A DNA stretch of 63,192 bases, the filler included, from Olpidium bornovanus S191 (Eukaryota; Fungi; Olpidiomycota), in assembly GCA_017911155.1 (NCBI GenBank). It is 29 parts of 29 records of this genome, joined end to end, with 100 filler letters (N's around TTAATTAATTAA, not from the genome) between each part and the next. Parts side by side here need not be neighbours in the genome. Positions count along the whole stretch, not along the records: positions 48,069 to 51,994 come from JAEFCI010005457.1; 28 more parts are not named here. One strand, written 5' to 3'. Position numbers and translations under genes: made by a program. Each line of letters starts with the position of its first letter. Positions within the stretch are counted from its first letter, which is position 1. Shown piece after piece: positions 15,408 through 51,994 of the stretch. The notes under the pieces were generated by a model. It was given only the letters and a program-made list of their open reading frames with translations, searched no databases and was not told where the DNA came from.

Positions 15408-16245
15408 TCAATGCCCGCCAAAGGCCATTTTGGGCGCCGACAGCGAGTCTGACTCTTTTTCGTCCCCGTAAGCTGCCCGGCTGAGCATGTCGGCCACCCG
15501 GTTCTCCTCCCCGGGGATGTGGACGATTTCGAACCCGTACTCTTTCAAATCGGCCATCCAACGACGGCTCGGCGCGTCAGCCGTGTAGTTTGCCAGCATG
15601 CCTATCAACAGCCGGCAATCGGTCTCGACCACCAGGCGAGCGCCCAAGACGTAGCGTCTTTTTTCTCTCATGGCGAGCCATAGCACGTACAGCTCCCGCT
15701 TTGTCTGTCCGTAGGCCTTCTGTGCGTCGTTGAAAGTCTTGGCCCCAAAGCGTGCAGGGCGTCTCTTGTCACCTTCCCCTTGAGATAGGACCCACCCGGC
15801 TGCATGCGGGCCGGCATCCACCGTAAGATAAATTGGGTAGGCATCCATTCCGTAGACGAGCTCGTGAAGCGTGGGCGCTTGATCCAGGGAGGCCTTCAGC
15901 TTCTCCATGGCGGACTCGCATTCTTCGTCCCAGGACCACGCCGCACCTTTCCGTAACAATCGATACAACGGCTCTGCGCATTCTCCGAAGTGAGGTAAGA
16001 ACGTTCTGTACACGCCAACCGCCCCCAGGAACCGGCGCACTTCCCGCCCCGACCGGCATGACTGCATGTCTCGTATGGACAACGCCGTTTTCCCATCAAC
16101 CCTCTTCCCATATGGCCCGCACATAAACCCCAGCAGCGGGATCTCTCGCACCCCGAACGCAGACTTGGCCCCAGAAAAAGTAAAACCTACCTCTTCTGCC
16201 CGCTCCAACACGCGTTCGACGTCACGGATGTGATCCCGGACAAAT
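15408..16245 (-). mobile_element. Ty3/gypsy LTR retrotransposon pol fragment (RT C-terminus + RNase H)
   Basis: VRRFLGAVGVYRTF...AEPLYRLLRKGAAWSW; LTVDAGPHAAGWVL; YGQTKRELY; VETDCRLL; HIPGEENRVADMLSR. Confidence 0.93.
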
Positions 16246-16344
16246 TGTAGTGAACCGTCCTTGATCCTCTATATCAACCCCCCACCCGGCTCTCTCTCAC
16301 TCTCTCCCTCTGTCTCGCGGTCTCTCTTCTTAATACACACAACA
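16246..16344 (+). mobile_element. Short LTR-like segment (TGTAGTG...ACAACA) abutting the truncated RT
   Basis: Begins TG and ends CA; CT-rich middle and ends resemble 54760-54847; no primer site or TSD recognised here. Confidence 0.45.
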
Positions 16345-27543: not shown

Positions 27544-28750
27544 TAGTATGTGGACCCCAACGGGCATCCAAAGCTGCGAACCAGGCGGGGTGCAGCTTCC
27601 AATCAGTAGTGTGCGAACGTGAAGCGAGGAACGACGAAGCGTCGTCAGGGAGAGGCGGGCGATAAGCCACTGAAGAGACAAGAGGCTCCGGCATTGAAAC
27701 AACACTTCCATCAGGGGGGCGAAGCCCGCCCTTGATGTCATCACTTAGCGGCAAAAGAACTTTGTCCTTGAGGTCGTTTCCGTGTCCTTCTTCGAAGGCG
27801 TCGTCGAGCAAGCGATCCGACATAAAACGATATGCCAAACGATATAACGACGCGGGCAAACGATCCAACGCGGCGCTGTTGTTGTTGAGGCCGCAAAGAA
27901 CCTTGTCCTCGATGCCGTCATCGAGCAAACGATCCAAACGATCCAACGCGGCGACATCCAAATGATCCGACGCGGCGGCATCCTTGGCATCCTCCTCCCC
28001 CTCCTGCTTGGCGACGAGGCGGGAAAGTGCATCTGCATCACGGTGGCGAGCTGCACTGCGTTGACGACATTCGAAGGGAAAGTCGGCGAAAAACATGACC
28101 CAACGGGCAAACTTGCCGGAGAGGTCAGGCTTCTTGATCAAATCAACGATCGCCGTACAGTCGGTCCACAAAACAAAAAGAGAGTGTAAAAGAAACGGGC
28201 GGTATTCGCGACAGGAACGGACAACTGTGAAACATTGTCGTTCTGGCTGACTGTAGTTCTGCTCCGTCCGCGAGAGCTTCCAACTGCCATAGTAGCACAC
28301 CCTGTGGTGGACCACACGTTCCCGATTTCATTACGTGTCATGCACTCTCCCGGCGCTATCCAGTTCTGGTAATACAGGGGTCGTCGCGTTGACACAGGTT
28401 GCCGGAAATCGCGCGTGGACCGGCATCGACTGCGAGCTCGAAGGTGCGCGACGGATCGGGGTGAGTAACGACAGGAGCAGAGGCCAAGAACGCTTTCAAA
28501 GAACAGAAGCTCTCTTCTTCAACAGAGGTCCAGCGCCAGGGCGTCGATTTGCGCATAAGATCCGTGAGCGGGGCAGTAATGGCGGCGAAGTCGACCAGCA
28601 GGCAGCGGAAGTACTGCGCAAGTCCGACAAATTCGTGCACGGCACGGATCGTGGTCGGGCGGGGAATTGCAACTAGCTTTTCGACTTTGGCGGGGTCGGC
28701 AGCGACGGAATCCCCCGAGACCTGCCATCCCCACACCACCAAGTCGCCAA
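27544..28750 (-). mobile_element. Decayed Ty3/gypsy pol fragment (RT end + RNase H) followed by a DIRS-like peptide
   Basis: ADPAKVEKLVAIPRPTTIRAVHEFVGLAQYFR..AAITAPLTDLMRK; frameshift; EQNYSQPERQCF..LWTDC..GKFARW..HRDADALSRL; ends LASRSHTTDWKLHPAWFAALDARWGPHT. Confidence 0.88.
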
Positions 28751-47166: not shown

Positions 47167-47968
47167 TGTAGTCGCAGTACTTCCCTCTTATTCCCGTAGT
47201 CCCGAATAAACCACAAAGGCTTTTCTCACAGGTTATGAGCCCAAGGGCACCCTACCCGTGAGCAGCCCAGCCCCGCCGCGCCATCGCCGTGCGCGCAGAA
47301 GAGGAGCAGCAGAAGGAGCGCCACCGCCGCGCACCCGCCGCGCGCCGTTGCCGCCGTCGTCGCGCAAGGACCTCGCCGCACCGCTGCTTCCCGCCATCCC
47401 GGCGACACGCAGCGCGCCGTTGCCACCGTCGTCGCGCAAGGACCTCGCCGCACCGCTGCTTCCCGCCATCCCGGCGACACGCAGCGCGCCGTTGCCACCG
47501 TCGTCGCGCAAGGACCTCGCCGCTCCGCTGCTTCCCGCCATCCCGGCGACACGCAGCACCGCCGTCGCGCAACCGCCTCGCAACCACCGCCGCGCAACCG
47601 CCGCGCGCCGCCGCACGTCATCGCCGCGCAATCGCCGCGCGCCATCGCCGCGCAACCGCCGCGCGCCATCGCCGCGCAACAACCGCGCGCCACCACGGCC
47701 ACCGGCTCGCCACCGCCGCTGCTTCTCGCCATCTCGGCGACACGCAGTACGCCGACCGCCACGCCACCGCCGCTGCTTCTCGCCATCTCGGTGACACGCA
47801 GCACACCTCCAGGCGCCACCAAGAACTCTGAGAAGTTGTCTCCATCTCACCCCCGTTCTTCTTTACGAAGAGAACGAGGCAGCGGACAAGTGCTGACGAA
47901 AACGAAAGCCATCAAAATTGATATTCCCTGACTTCAGAACACTAAGCCGTCAACCATGTCTAACCGCC
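47167..47968 (+). mobile_element. 5' end of a Ty1/copia (Ty5-like) element: short LTR-like segment, half-tRNAiMet PBS, repeat-rich leader
   Basis: ...CTCACA at 47230 directly followed by GGTTATGAGCCC (47231-47242), the complement of the tRNAiMet anticodon stem-loop used by Ty5/copia; left LTR boundary uncertain (47156-47167). Confidence 0.7.
47341..47556. repeat. 72-bp GC-rich tandem repeat, 3 copies
   Basis: CGCGCCGTTGCC recurs at 47341, 47413 and 47485. Confidence 0.92.
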
Positions 47969-48132
47969 NNNNNNNNNNNNNNNNNNNNNNNNNNNNNNNN
48001 NNNNNNNNNNNNTTAATTAATTAANNNNNNNNNNNNNNNNNNNNNNNNNNNNNNNNNNNNNNNNNNNNCATGTCTTGCGGTGGGATTTACGCGCGGTGGG
48101 ATTTACGCGATTTTCCCGTCTTCTCTCCGCAG

Positions 48133-51100
48133 TTCGGATTCTGGACGACGCGGTCACGGTGTTGCGCCCGTGCCTCGTAACCCCTTGGTGGGAGCGCAAC
48201 GTCTCCGCGACGTTCCTAGCGGAGCAGTTTTTGCAGCAAGACATTCCCCCAATGGAACCGAGGTTCGCCTGGTGGACGATGGAGAAGCGGCTTTGGAGAA
48301 CATGGGCATCACAACGACGCGTATCAATAAGCAGTACATTGAGCCGACAGATTACCTACCCCCCCGCTCGGAGTGGGTGTCATTCGGCGGGCCTGCATCG
48401 AGTCGGGGGAATGTTATCTGGTTTGCGTAAGGAGCAATATGGAGACCGGAAAGTCAGAAGCTTTGAGGGAATTAGTTGGCGACTCGCGGGACCAGGACCT
48501 TGCGCTGGTAGGAGGCGGCATCGGGCGACGTCTCGCGGAGCGCACCGCCGCCGTACGGCGGGATCTCAACTGCTTTCTAGATTGTGGGGACGCAGCGCAA
48601 CGTCCAACGGTCCTCGCCGTGACGGCGAGGATTTTGTTTGCGGACTGGCAGTACGGTGGCACCTGCAGGACTACCGGCTACTTGCGGCCGCAGCAGACAG
48701 GGACAACGCGAGGTGCGCACAGCTTTTTCTCCCGTAACTTCTACTCCTAATCGCTGGTATTATCTAACCCGCTGCCGCCCCCTTCAGGTGGTTGCGCGGG
48801 GGTCGTCGCGGGCCGGAACCCCCGAACGCGTCCGCTCGCATGGCTTCGGCCCCTCACCTCGCCATTTGCTCCACCTCCCTCTCCAACCTGAATCCCACGG
48901 AGCACAATTGGGAGATCGTCGCTATTGATGAACGTAGGTTGGGCAGTGGGGTCGGAGGTTACGTTCTCTAACAGCTCTTAACAGCAACGTCCCCGACACG
49001 TGGTTCCCCTACGATTTAGGTCGGCAAGTCGCCGACCACAATGTGTCGGAAATCGTAATCGGCGAGCTGCACAAAGTCTCGAAGACAATGCGGTCCCTGG
49101 TGAAAACCGCAAAACTCACCATTGTTGCTGCAGCTGACCTGGATGCCGAGTCGTTGCGCGTAATGTTTCCCGGGAGGGACTGGAAGGACCCGGCGAAGGT
49201 GAACTCGGTTCGATCGCGTGTAGTGTTGCTTACGTGTGCTCACGCTTTTGCTCGCCCGGCGATCATCAAGGCGCGGCTAGTGATAAACGAGGGCCGCGCG
49301 GGGGCGCTGCAGGGACACCTCTGTGTGACGATACCTTCGCTTGAACCCGCAGTCCGGGCGCTTGACGCGTTGCTACAGGCGGGGAAGCGGGGGTTCGTCC
49401 CCTGTGGGACTGTCGCGGTCCAGCAGGCCGTGGTCTCCTACGTGCAGCGGTGGTTTCCACAAGTTCGGGTGCTCGGCGTAAACAAGTCGAGTCCCGCAGA
49501 CGTCAAGGCAAACCTCGCGAGTGACGACCCGACGCAGTGGATTCGCGATGTAAGTTATAGCACCCGCTCGACGGTCGGAAGTTGTAGCCCTATAACTCCC
49601 GCTCCGGCGCGTTTAGGAGGAAATCCAAGTTCTCGTCGTGACACCGGTAATCTCGACGGGGTTCAGCATCGATGGGGGATGGTTTGACATTCTGGTCGCT
49701 TTTTTCCCGACGCTGCCCGCCATCCCGGCGACAAAGTTACAGTTCGTTGCGCGAGTGCGTGGATTCCCATCGAAAGTAGGTTGTAGTGGGTTGTAGTGGG
49801 CGCTCGGCCCGAAGTGTCCGGTTACTAAGTACCGTGCTATTGCGCGCAGGTGATCTTCGTGTGGTACGAAGAATGGGTGCCGTGCGCCACGGAACGTCTG
49901 CGGTCCGGCTCCAGCTTGGCGTTCACGGCGCGCCAATTCGTGGAGGCCGCCGACGCGTATGACGAGTCGGTGGAGGACCTTCTCGGCGGGCTCATCGACG
50001 AAATTCGCGACGTTGGCTGGCGCAGGTAAGGCACGGCAGGATTCACGAGCGGGAAAATGCTATGCCTTACATACAAATAATTCATTGTTATTCCTAACGC
50101 TAGATTCGCCGCCGTACGCGCCGCCGAGGAGCGTTAAATGAGAACGCTGGGGCCGGGCAAGTTCTACGTCGGAATAGAGGAGAAGACTGGTAGACAACCG
50201 ATGCCTCTTTCGGGGTACCTCGCACATCCAACCGGCCGCTGGCTGAGGACCGCGCTCGCATCCCAACTTTGGAGGGACGGGCGGGGCACGCTGGCCCTCC
50301 GCCAGGAGCAAATGCAGCTCTCCGCGGCTCGCAGAGATGACGTGCGAGCGTTCCGCACGGAGGACGACCTACGCGCTCGGGAAGCACGAGATGAGAGAAC
50401 TCCCGCGGCTGCGTTGGCGCTCGCCATTTTCCGCGTAAGAGCCCGGCTAGTCTGTGACGTTATAGCGCGATAACGTGCGTGGCTGACGATTTTAATTTTA
50501 ACGGGGTTCAGGACACGTCCTTTCCACCAGGGGTGTTGTCAGCAAAGGAGGCCCAGTCGGCCTCCTTCCGGCGCACCATTCGGACGCTGGCGGACAGCCT
50601 CCTCGTTCTGCTTGACGCAGACCTTGCGGCGCGGTCGTTAGCTGAACACGACCGGAGACTCGCAATTGGTACAATGGGGGCCGCCGTGGCAACAAGCAAG
50701 CGGCGCCTCTTTTTGACAGAATTGGATAAGCTCGTGGCCAAGCTGGTCCTGGTGGGCGTCGGTGCGCCGGAGGCTGGTCCTCCTGACGAGCGGAACAAGC
50801 TCCTTTGCCTGCTGTGTCGAGCCTATGATGAGGCGCGCGACACCACTGAATTCGAGGTAGACAGCAACGGGTTCACCGTTGCTGATGAGATCCGACTGTA
50901 TCTCGCCTTACCATTCCAACGGGAGCTCATCAGCTCGCTGGATGCGCTAGACATCGGCGAAGCCTCGATCAAGTTCCTGCGCCACATGGCGGCATCGAAC
51001 GACGAGCGCGTCCACCCGAAGGATTACCGAAGTGCGGTGACATACGTTTTTGGGCCGCGTCGCCAGGGAATGGCGCCAGGGAATGGTGTGTACTGATGCT

Positions 51101-51540
51101 ATTGGAATGCATCAGATATCGTCAGGCGAGGCATGAGAGTGTACGGCGATGTCGCGCAGCCGGCGTTGCGGTTCGCCCTGCGGAAACGCGGGGCATCGGC
51201 GCTGGAGGATGACGAAGGCGCCTTCGTAGTCCGCGTCCACGGCCTTCGCCGGAAACTCCTACTCGCTATCGGCCTTTTCTGCACAACGGAGGCTCGGTAT
51301 AACGAAATCGCCACTCGTTTGCGAGCCTTTCCCTGGCTCAGGCGGTTCGTGTGTAGCTGGGACCAGATACGCCGGCTTCGTGGGGAGCAAACTACGATGA
51401 CGGAATTTCTCGCCGCGGCGCGCGCGATTGTCCCGCCCCGCCCCCCCGCTCGCACTGAACACTTTCCCCTCGCCCAAACCCCAGAAGCCATTATTGCCGC
51501 AGTCACCGAGGAGGAACTTGCCCGCGGTGCGGGTTATTGA
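48133..51540 (+). pseudogene. Spliced, disrupted UL9/origin-binding-protein-like superfamily 2 helicase (~1000 codons, 5' truncated)
   Basis: Exons 48133-48712, 48788-48933, 48975-49549, 49617-49775, 49850-50025, 50104-50434, 50512-51540 joined by GT-AG introns. Motifs in order: VRSNMETGKS (I), TVLAVTARILF (Ia), LAICSTSLSNL..WEIVAIDE (II), AKLTIVAAADLD (III), FVPCGT (IV), VLVVTPVISTGFSID..WFD (V), LQFVARVR (VI). Frameshifts near 48359-48365 and 48657; stops at 50135-50137 and 51094-51096. Confidence 0.8.
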
Positions 51541-51633
51541 CAGCAAGTTGTTGTGCAACAACGTCCATGCTACGCTACGGAACGTTAAGGCATTTTAGTT
51601 ACGCTACGGAGGTGCGCGCTGGGTGTCCGTTCG

Positions 51634-51994
51634 TCACGCGGCCGGTCCGCGTGACCTCGTCACGCGGCCGCTTTGCTCCACGACGGCGCGCAGGGTGTTT
51701 TCCGTTACCCCGATGGATTCGGCGTCGGTGCTTCTTATGCGCTTCTTGCGCTTAGGTTTCTTTGGGCTCTTCGCTCTTTTTGGGCTAGAAAGGGGCGGAA
51801 GGGGTGCCCAGTCTACCGGCGGGATCCCAACGAGGACGTCGGGCATTTCCGCGTTTTGTGGCTCCGTAGATGACATGGCGGGCATTTCCGCGTCGGGCAT
51901 TTCCGCGTCCCGGGGCTGTCCAGATTCGCAAACCGCCTCGCGGGAGTACTCTGCCGCCTCGTCCTGCTGGTCCTGACGGCAGGGCGAGTGGGGA
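51634..51994 (-). CDS. Hypothetical protein C-terminus convergent on the helicase gene
   Basis: Frame open from the contig end; three AEMP repeats and a basic NLS-like stretch PKRAKSPKKPKRKKRIR. Confidence 0.35.

Follow-up and report, generated by a model that had tools for sequence, protein, structure and literature searches.

Helicases of the origin-binding protein (OBP) class are known as the initiators of viruses, phages and plasmids. The present analysis concerns a gene for such a helicase in a fungus, which occupies positions 48133 to 51540 of a stretch of 63,192 nucleotides (nt) made of 29 joined contigs of Olpidium bornovanus S191 (GCA_017911155.1; that whole stretch is termed 'the window' below). 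Among the described systems, the closest is CyRepA1 (NCBIfam NF042913; Slr7037 of the plasmid pSYSA), which is reported, in the accessible text of the corresponding accounts, to combine primase and helicase domains (PMC9978351; 10.1101/2023.10.09.561360) and to be essential for the autonomous plasmid replication of pSYSA (PMC9978351). On the viral side, the available portions of several papers describe an OBP pseudogene carried by integrated viral DNA in Ectocarpus (PMC2373305), Herpes_ori_bp as a core gene of skiaviruses, together with one skiavirus gene carrying a spliceosomal intron (10.64898/2026.07.28.741200), and giant viruses integrated in zoosporic fungi, the main text of that last report, in its accessible part, naming neither UL9 nor Olpidium (PMC13533422). 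The Pfam family PF02399 (Herpes_ori_bp) is itself presented, in the available text, as a herpes domain (PMC7000910), and a mirusvirus host screen, as far as its accessible text goes, excluded fungi (10.1101/2024.01.18.576163). A literature search, with most subscription papers outside its reach, brought up no description of fungal OBP genes that form an intron-bearing family.

The gene in the window is a real, spliced and divergent gene of the OBP helicase class, broken in the copy at hand, and we read it as a decayed copy of the replicase (the origin-binding helicase) of an intron-bearing mobile element, a reading that we hold to be evenly poised. A spliced, intron-dense and expressed branch of this class in a fungus-like eukaryote would represent either a missed nuclear replicon or a plasmid initiator taken into host use. 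Gene finders and virus screens would miss such a replicon, its introns breaking up the protein to the point where Pfam matches none of the pieces; the gene also provides a way into the PF02399 genes, as yet unexplained, that are annotated in Mucoromycota assemblies.

The superfamily 2 (SF2) motifs that define the UL9/OBP class, namely I (S.M.TGK[ST]), Ia, xIxxxSL, II (DE), III, V (TP..S.G.S) and VI (QxxxRxR), are all present in order and spacing in an alignment with 27 references (nine of them shown), and every helicase motif quoted in the original prediction was recovered, with the Walker A sequence RSNMETGKS at 48430-48456 and motif Ia at 48610-48642. Motif II reads IDE, and no DEAD, Helicase_C or RecQ profile matched the window pieces or their relatives; judged from these motifs, the assignment of the predicted product to the UL9/OBP class, rather than to the DEAD-box or RecQ helicases, stands.

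A full HMMER search with one exon against 1.84 billion representative sequences returned seven proteins, four of which (P0001 to P0004) are true relatives; the remaining three (P0005-P0007) were dropped as repetitive or unrelated. Over exon 49271-49549, identity amounts to 61% for P0001 and 39% for P0002 and P0003, and the 672-residue P0004 is 31% identical; one relative reaches 67% identity across 150 residues. The nearest named relative, P0003, is itself an O. bornovanus protein (KAG5456433.1, 39% identity) whose gene model is without motif VI, which suggests, at the level of sequence, that this species harbors divergent and decaying copies. The best profile was that of CyRepA1, which matched the motif V-VI exon 49617-49775 (E=1e-6) and all four relatives (E 3e-16 to 1e-6) with 28-59 bits on fragments, under the 200-bit cut-off for NF042913 membership. 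PHROG 4913 ('replication') matched the same exon at E=0.0011 and likewise all four relatives (P0002 at E=9.7e-11), tblastn matches were to N15-type RepA and CyRepA1, and every named non-eukaryotic relative is a replication protein of a plasmid, phage or virus. The comparison with Herpes_ori_bp that had been proposed beforehand was run and returned no match, either in nine window pieces at E<=1 or in the four true relatives at E<=0.1, while two of three CyRepA1 and both phage proteins scanned carry PF02399. Pfam as a whole gave no match at a useful level for any window piece, because the introns split the protein.

A reference panel of 7 CyRepA1-like, 3 phage RepA, 12 viral OBP and 10 herpes UL9 open reading frames (ORFs) was then compared with the window product. 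Local profile scores were 65 bits for CyRepA1, 13 for phage RepA, 15 for viral OBPs and 4 for herpes (across gene models, 65-73 for CyRepA1, 15-18 for viral OBPs and 4-6 for herpes), with 20 shuffled controls reaching at most 3.3 bits, and against the revised core all seven CyRepA1-like references outscored the other 25 (19-29 versus 1-14 bits); these panel scores are inflated, the bacterial panel having been picked by similarity to the query and the viral panel by motifs. The library contrast, in which CyRepA1 matches and PF02399 does not, is a fairer test than the panel scores and agrees with them.

In a tree that is unrooted, names no donor and holds no fungal, mirusvirus or polinton-like OBPs, the window gene and its four relatives grouped as a single, long-branched clade (100/100), and a branch uniting herpes and viral OBPs excluded these five sequences (100/98; 95/94 without long rows). 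Four near-identical herpes rows were left out of the first tree, and 13 more that were long, gappy or redundant were left out of the reduced tree. Approximately unbiased (AU) tests of a grouping with viral OBPs gave p=0.057 in the full set and p=0.043 in the reduced set, and a grouping with herpes UL9 gave p=0.103, so that, by these alignments, a viral home appears only half excluded. The label 'virus-type' in the original prediction was not borne out, given the missing PF02399 match, the CyRepA1 profile as the best, and a clade that falls outside both herpes and giant-virus OBPs. Three of the viral OBPs (L035, L039 and L041, two of them from giant-virus bins) share a herpes-like RLIxQVESLHR motif and form a branch of their own, and L035 has a weak AEP_C962R match.

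Compared system by system, CyRepA1 shares with the window product its colinear motifs I-VI, a Cys in the motif that precedes Walker B and an ADL within motif III, whereas the window clade scores below the family cut-off, is eukaryotic and spliced, and occupies a long separate branch; the DUF3854/Toprim N-terminal domain was not found in P0004, and the window copy is probably cut at its 5' end. The RepA proteins of N15 and of Vibrio linear plasmid-prophages (PHROG 4913) likewise hold an OBP-class helicase within a primase-helicase initiator, but identity is ~22-27% and confined to the second RecA-like domain, and the RepA primase is of Toprim type. Giant-virus OBPs (mimivirus R1/R8-like, with Prim-Pol, PriCT-2 and PF02399) have the same motif order and spacing and, if a lead in P0004 described below holds, the same primase-helicase layout; they differ in scoring at most 14 bits per sequence, in forming a separate branch and in being encoded by genes that are intron-free in 12 contigs. 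Herpesvirus UL9 shares the class-defining motifs, and is set apart by its family profile (PF02399), by its panel scores, by the tree, and by a C-terminal half in the window product for which no match to UL9 or to other reference panel sequences was found. Finally, the nearest ESM Atlas look-alike of P0004 is a PF02399 cluster ('7009_t:CDS:1'; score 0.93, 204 of 256 features) whose members are mostly from Mucoromycota, and which shows other fungal assemblies to contain OBP-class genes as well; 88% of that cluster matches PF02399 whereas none of the window clade does, and the likeness is one of Atlas features.

The same relative, P0004, carries 335 residues N-terminal of its helicase, including a Cys/His cluster. 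Residues 1-335 resemble RepB_primase/BT4734-like Atlas clusters at 0.84, under the 0.9 lead threshold, and nine of the ten best Atlas matches of this N-terminus share a family or clan; Pfam gave no match in P0004, Prim-Pol and PriCT-2 included, and an AEP-like primase N-terminus is a weak lead only. A single-sequence AlphaFold model of P0004 reached a mean predicted local distance difference test (pLDDT) value of only 34, while solved UL9 structures exist.

Further searches added no relatives. Word-index protein searches gave none of 3092 candidates for the exon query, only P0004 itself for P0004 and only P0003 for alignment A2; three direct scans of viral contigs (IMG/VR), two of them confirmed by tblastn, found no relative, and a scan of prokaryote genomes gave none either (0 of 91). 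No relevant entry came out of PDB sequence searches in which A2, P0004 or the window exon served as the query. Four motif matches in viral contigs all proved to be unrelated ORFs, one of 273 metagenome stretches passed and was judged chance (a 22-residue match in a frame without other motifs), and threonine dehydratase matches in PDB were likewise judged chance.

The evidence for splicing came from contigs of two public runs (X1 and X2) of one sample, likely RNA, at depth 2-5, which are 90-99% alike to the window gene. The original prediction had joined one gene of about 1000 codons across six introns; a single spliced gene and the GT..AG ends of all six introns were upheld, whereas one acceptor was wrong, two introns had been missed, the contig holds only ~930 codons, and stops at 50135 and 51094 had gone unmentioned. 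The run contigs skip four introns: two as first given, one with a moved acceptor and one new. The first two are 50435-50511, with a GT..AG joint from 50434 to 50512 in X2, and 49550-49616, where X1 has a loose end at 49550 with 11 letters that equal the start of the next exon. Homologues account for two more, P0002 being continuous across 49776-49849 and the P0003 gene model contiguous across 50026-50103, and the basis for 48713-48787, outside run-contig coverage, is its splice signals and internal stops. Because of the run-contig joints, the acceptor of intron 2 was moved from 48974 to 49019 (86 nt; X2 joint 48932 to 49020), the 41-nt version (48934-48974) being rejected on that joint and on the better profile score of the longer one, and an extra intron was placed at 51032-51115 (84 nt; X2 joint and X1 loose end), which removes the TGA at 51094; this 84-nt skip aligned two bases to the left, and its GT-AG placement is our own reading and needs one base difference. 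A 24-residue gap in the alignment with P0003 and P0004 makes a further in-frame intron of 72 nt likely at 49199-49270, and an X1 contig that begins at 49268 is consistent with it, though no proof. The revised model therefore has eight introns of 67-86 nt, its profile score climbing with each revision (57, 68 and 73 bits); the two stops left in frame by the six-intron model are reduced to that at 50135, which persists, and the 5' end of the gene probably lies beyond the contig edge. The contig and the gene model comprise the following features.

48069..51994, strand unassigned: whole gene-bearing contig, bounded by linkers
48069..48132, + strand: putative 3' end of an upstream intron, likely from its pyrimidine tract and CAG
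48077-48108: exact 16-nt tandem repeat within that likely upstream intron, from a repeat search
48133..48712, + strand: first coding segment on the contig, frame-broken, with Walker A and motif Ia
48713..48787, + strand: intron 1, 75 nt, GT..CAG, CTAAC at -24, internal stops
48788..48933, + strand: exon, AICSTSL at 48861-48881, Walker B IDE ending at 48932, from motifs and homologue alignment
48934..49019, + strand: intron 2, 86 nt, from the X2 joint and profile score
49020..49198, + strand: exon with motif III AAADLD (49127-49144), from alignment
49199..49270, + strand: likely intron, 72 nt, in frame, GT..AAG, CTCAC at -32, at the P0003/P0004 gap
49271..49549, + strand: exon with the start of the second RecA-like domain and motif IV, from homologue identity
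49550..49616, + strand: intron, 67 nt, X1 loose end, P0001-P0003 contiguous
49617..49775, + strand: exon, motif V TPVISTGFSI at 49641-49670, motif VI QFVARVR at 49740-49760, CyRepA1 profile match
49776..49849, + strand: intron, 74 nt, from signals and continuity of P0002
49850..50025, + strand: exon, start of the C-terminal half, P0003 match
50026..50103, + strand: intron, 78 nt, CTAAC at -10, P0003 contiguous
50104..50434, + strand: exon with premature stop 50135-50137 in translation, X2 without a stop at that codon
50435..50511, + strand: intron, 77 nt, X2 GT..AG joint
50512..51031, + strand: exon, C-terminal half, no family match in profile searches
51032..51115, + strand: intron, 84 nt, CTGAT at -23, X2 joint and X1 loose end
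51116..51540, + strand: last exon, stop 51538-51540, covered by X1 and X2 contigs
51634..51993, - strand: 3' end of an ORF that runs convergently and is truncated at the contig edge, low complexity, no family

A 13-nt tandem repeat lies within intron 51032-51115. P0001 starts at the site of intron 49199-49270 and ends two residues past that of 49776-49849, nevertheless running through the site of intron 49550-49616, and P0002 also begins near the 49199-49270 site; these ends at intron sites may point to transcripts that were spliced only in part, or to a family in which introns have been gained and lost.

The window copy is damaged by an in-frame stop at 50135-50137 and by a frameshift near 48642-48657. 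The original prediction had allowed for that frameshift (near 48657), to which two further frame changes upstream of motif I, near 48246-48262 and at a C run at 48359-48365, are now to be added by inference; a run contig with a loose end at 48151 points to a further indel. In X2, contigs lack a stop at the 50135 codon and carry extra bases near the 48642 frameshift, and the close spliced copy is free of these two lesions, the ones that its contigs cover in full. The gene is apparently expressed in that close copy, and the word 'relic' used in the original prediction consequently fits the window copy only. Some of the window-copy lesions may be assembly errors. Among 59 listed substitutions between the two copies (40 of 64 from one listing and 19 added from another), those in the main frame comprise 18 synonymous and 30 non-synonymous changes (ratio of non-synonymous to synonymous proportions, pN/pS, 0.58; p=0.053), the motif I stretch has one synonymous and five non-synonymous changes, and all five differences at 48150-48250 are synonymous in one frame. 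This pattern fits a decaying copy compared with a constrained one, the signal being weak, and no CpG bias or bias of the kind left by repeat-induced point mutation (RIP) was evident among the differences.

If the mobile-element reading is right, the intact protein would bind the origin of its own element through its C-terminal half, as its family suggests, and unwind it with ATP; with a primase-like N-terminus of the kind hinted at in P0004, it would also supply primers for the polymerases of the host to extend, in the manner of N15 RepA and CyRepA1. Host RNA polymerase II would transcribe the gene and the host spliceosome would splice it, and the element would therefore live in the nucleus, with the window holding a decayed copy and the close copy in the other sample being the working one. 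A fuller version of this account, which we advance tentatively and consider somewhat unlikely, is that of an undescribed nuclear DNA element whose primase-helicase initiator came from the RepA of a bacterial plasmid or plasmid-prophage, gained introns, is still expressed, and has left decayed copies in early-branching fungi. Several observations weigh against an element: no integrase, capsid or second element gene is found on the 3.9 kb contig; four relatives among 1.84 billion representatives are few for an active element; the primase is absent from the contig, which probably cuts the gene at its 5' end, and its P0004 counterpart scores under the 0.9 threshold; the selection signal between the two copies is weak; the panels were picked in a manner that favored high scores; the RNA nature of both runs is a guess, no library being on record; the contig's GC content of 0.60 is host-like (0.51-0.65 across the other contigs); and eight introns with host-like GC would fit an old host gene equally well.

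That last point leads to the possibility that a replicon-derived helicase entered the host in a single acquisition, took up introns and today works as a host DNA helicase, the window copy being a dead paralogue or allele, or one damaged in part by errors of assembly. Host-like intron density, intron length and GC, a spliced copy without the two lesions, the location of the two inferred frame changes in runs of C, within an assembly whose contigs often end in homopolymers, and a contig free of element genes would all be expected of it. The two close copies nevertheless differ by ~5%, with many non-synonymous changes and several indels, the same species also has P0003, at 39% identity and with its gene model incomplete, and no cellular helicase of the OBP class is known to us to perform a host function; we rate such a host gene unlikely, though with real weight. 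Neither grouping of the product with a single-copy cellular helicase family nor disuse of the introns was found. A DNA origin for the joined form, as an intron-free copy (a retrocopy or free replicon) and not mRNA, draws on the guessed RNA status of the runs, and is very improbable given four skips on GT..AG segments, three of them with branch-like words; so is a chance join of the motifs, given the shuffled controls (<=3.3 bits versus 65) and the relative with 67% identity over 150 residues.

The original prediction had offered a choice between the remains of an endogenous large DNA virus and an undescribed self-replicating element with host-type introns, and the element is the better of the two, although unproven. 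A viral relic would derive from a nucleocytovirus, mirusvirus or polinton-like virus with nuclear replication, whose genes would have picked up spliceosomal introns. Viruses of these kinds commonly carry OBP genes, and the Ectocarpus pseudogene (PMC2373305), the skiavirus core gene and intron (10.64898/2026.07.28.741200) and the giant-virus integrations in zoosporic fungi (PMC13533422), each as described in accessible text, provide precedents; in addition, the AU test rejected neither the viral OBPs in the full set nor herpes UL9, and mirusvirus, Mycodnaviridae and Glomeromycotina OBPs were not knowingly among the tree sequences. Set against this are the well-supported branch that excludes the clade, the AU rejection in the reduced set, the low viral OBP and herpes scores beside those of CyRepA1, and the lack of any IMG/VR relative in the three direct scans. 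Mycodnaviridae contigs are moreover defined, in the available text, by an intron density unlike (lower than) that of the host (PMC13533422), whereas the present gene has 8 introns in 3.4 kb and a GC content within the range of the other contigs. A viral relic is, on these grounds, unlikely, though almost as plausible as the host gene.

The gene fills a single 3.9 kb contig of the 29 (48069-51994), which linkers of the form N44-TTAATTAATTAA-N44 bound on either side, and the flanking window sequence is no proven neighbour. Its description as 'hidden in a fungal contig' was loose, this contig containing, besides the gene, nothing more than the end of a single convergent ORF. No terminal repeats occur inside it, and the ends of an element would lie outside. 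Its composition is not alien (trinucleotide distance 0.038, within a range of 0.012-0.107), and its TpA value (0.78) is the highest of the 29 contigs. A second copy of the gene was not found elsewhere in the window, and among 150 of 187 window ORFs of at least 125 residues that were scanned, none encodes the viral hallmarks major capsid protein (MCP), A32 or PolB. Other window contigs carry the eukaryotic housekeeping genes Uso1, DOCK, TAF12, Ssl1, Rrp4, formin and AGM1, and two have reverse transcriptase/RNase H retroelement fragments, at 15411-16268 and 27545-28748 (- strand). Three housekeeping fragments had a mixture of fungal and human proteins as their best PDB matches; the short GT-AG introns, taken with P0003 of O. 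bornovanus as nearest named relative, make an early-branching fungus the likely host. Many contigs have CATG or a long homopolymer run at one of their ends, pointing to a window assembly that is fragmented and of low quality. A 72-nt tandem repeat at 47386-47551, in the previous contig, has 21 of 22 nt of a word in common with exon 49617-49775 (E=0.005), probably by chance. The convergent ORF at 51634-51993 (- strand), which could be a second element gene, contains three 15-nt repeats and a lysine/arginine-rich stretch.

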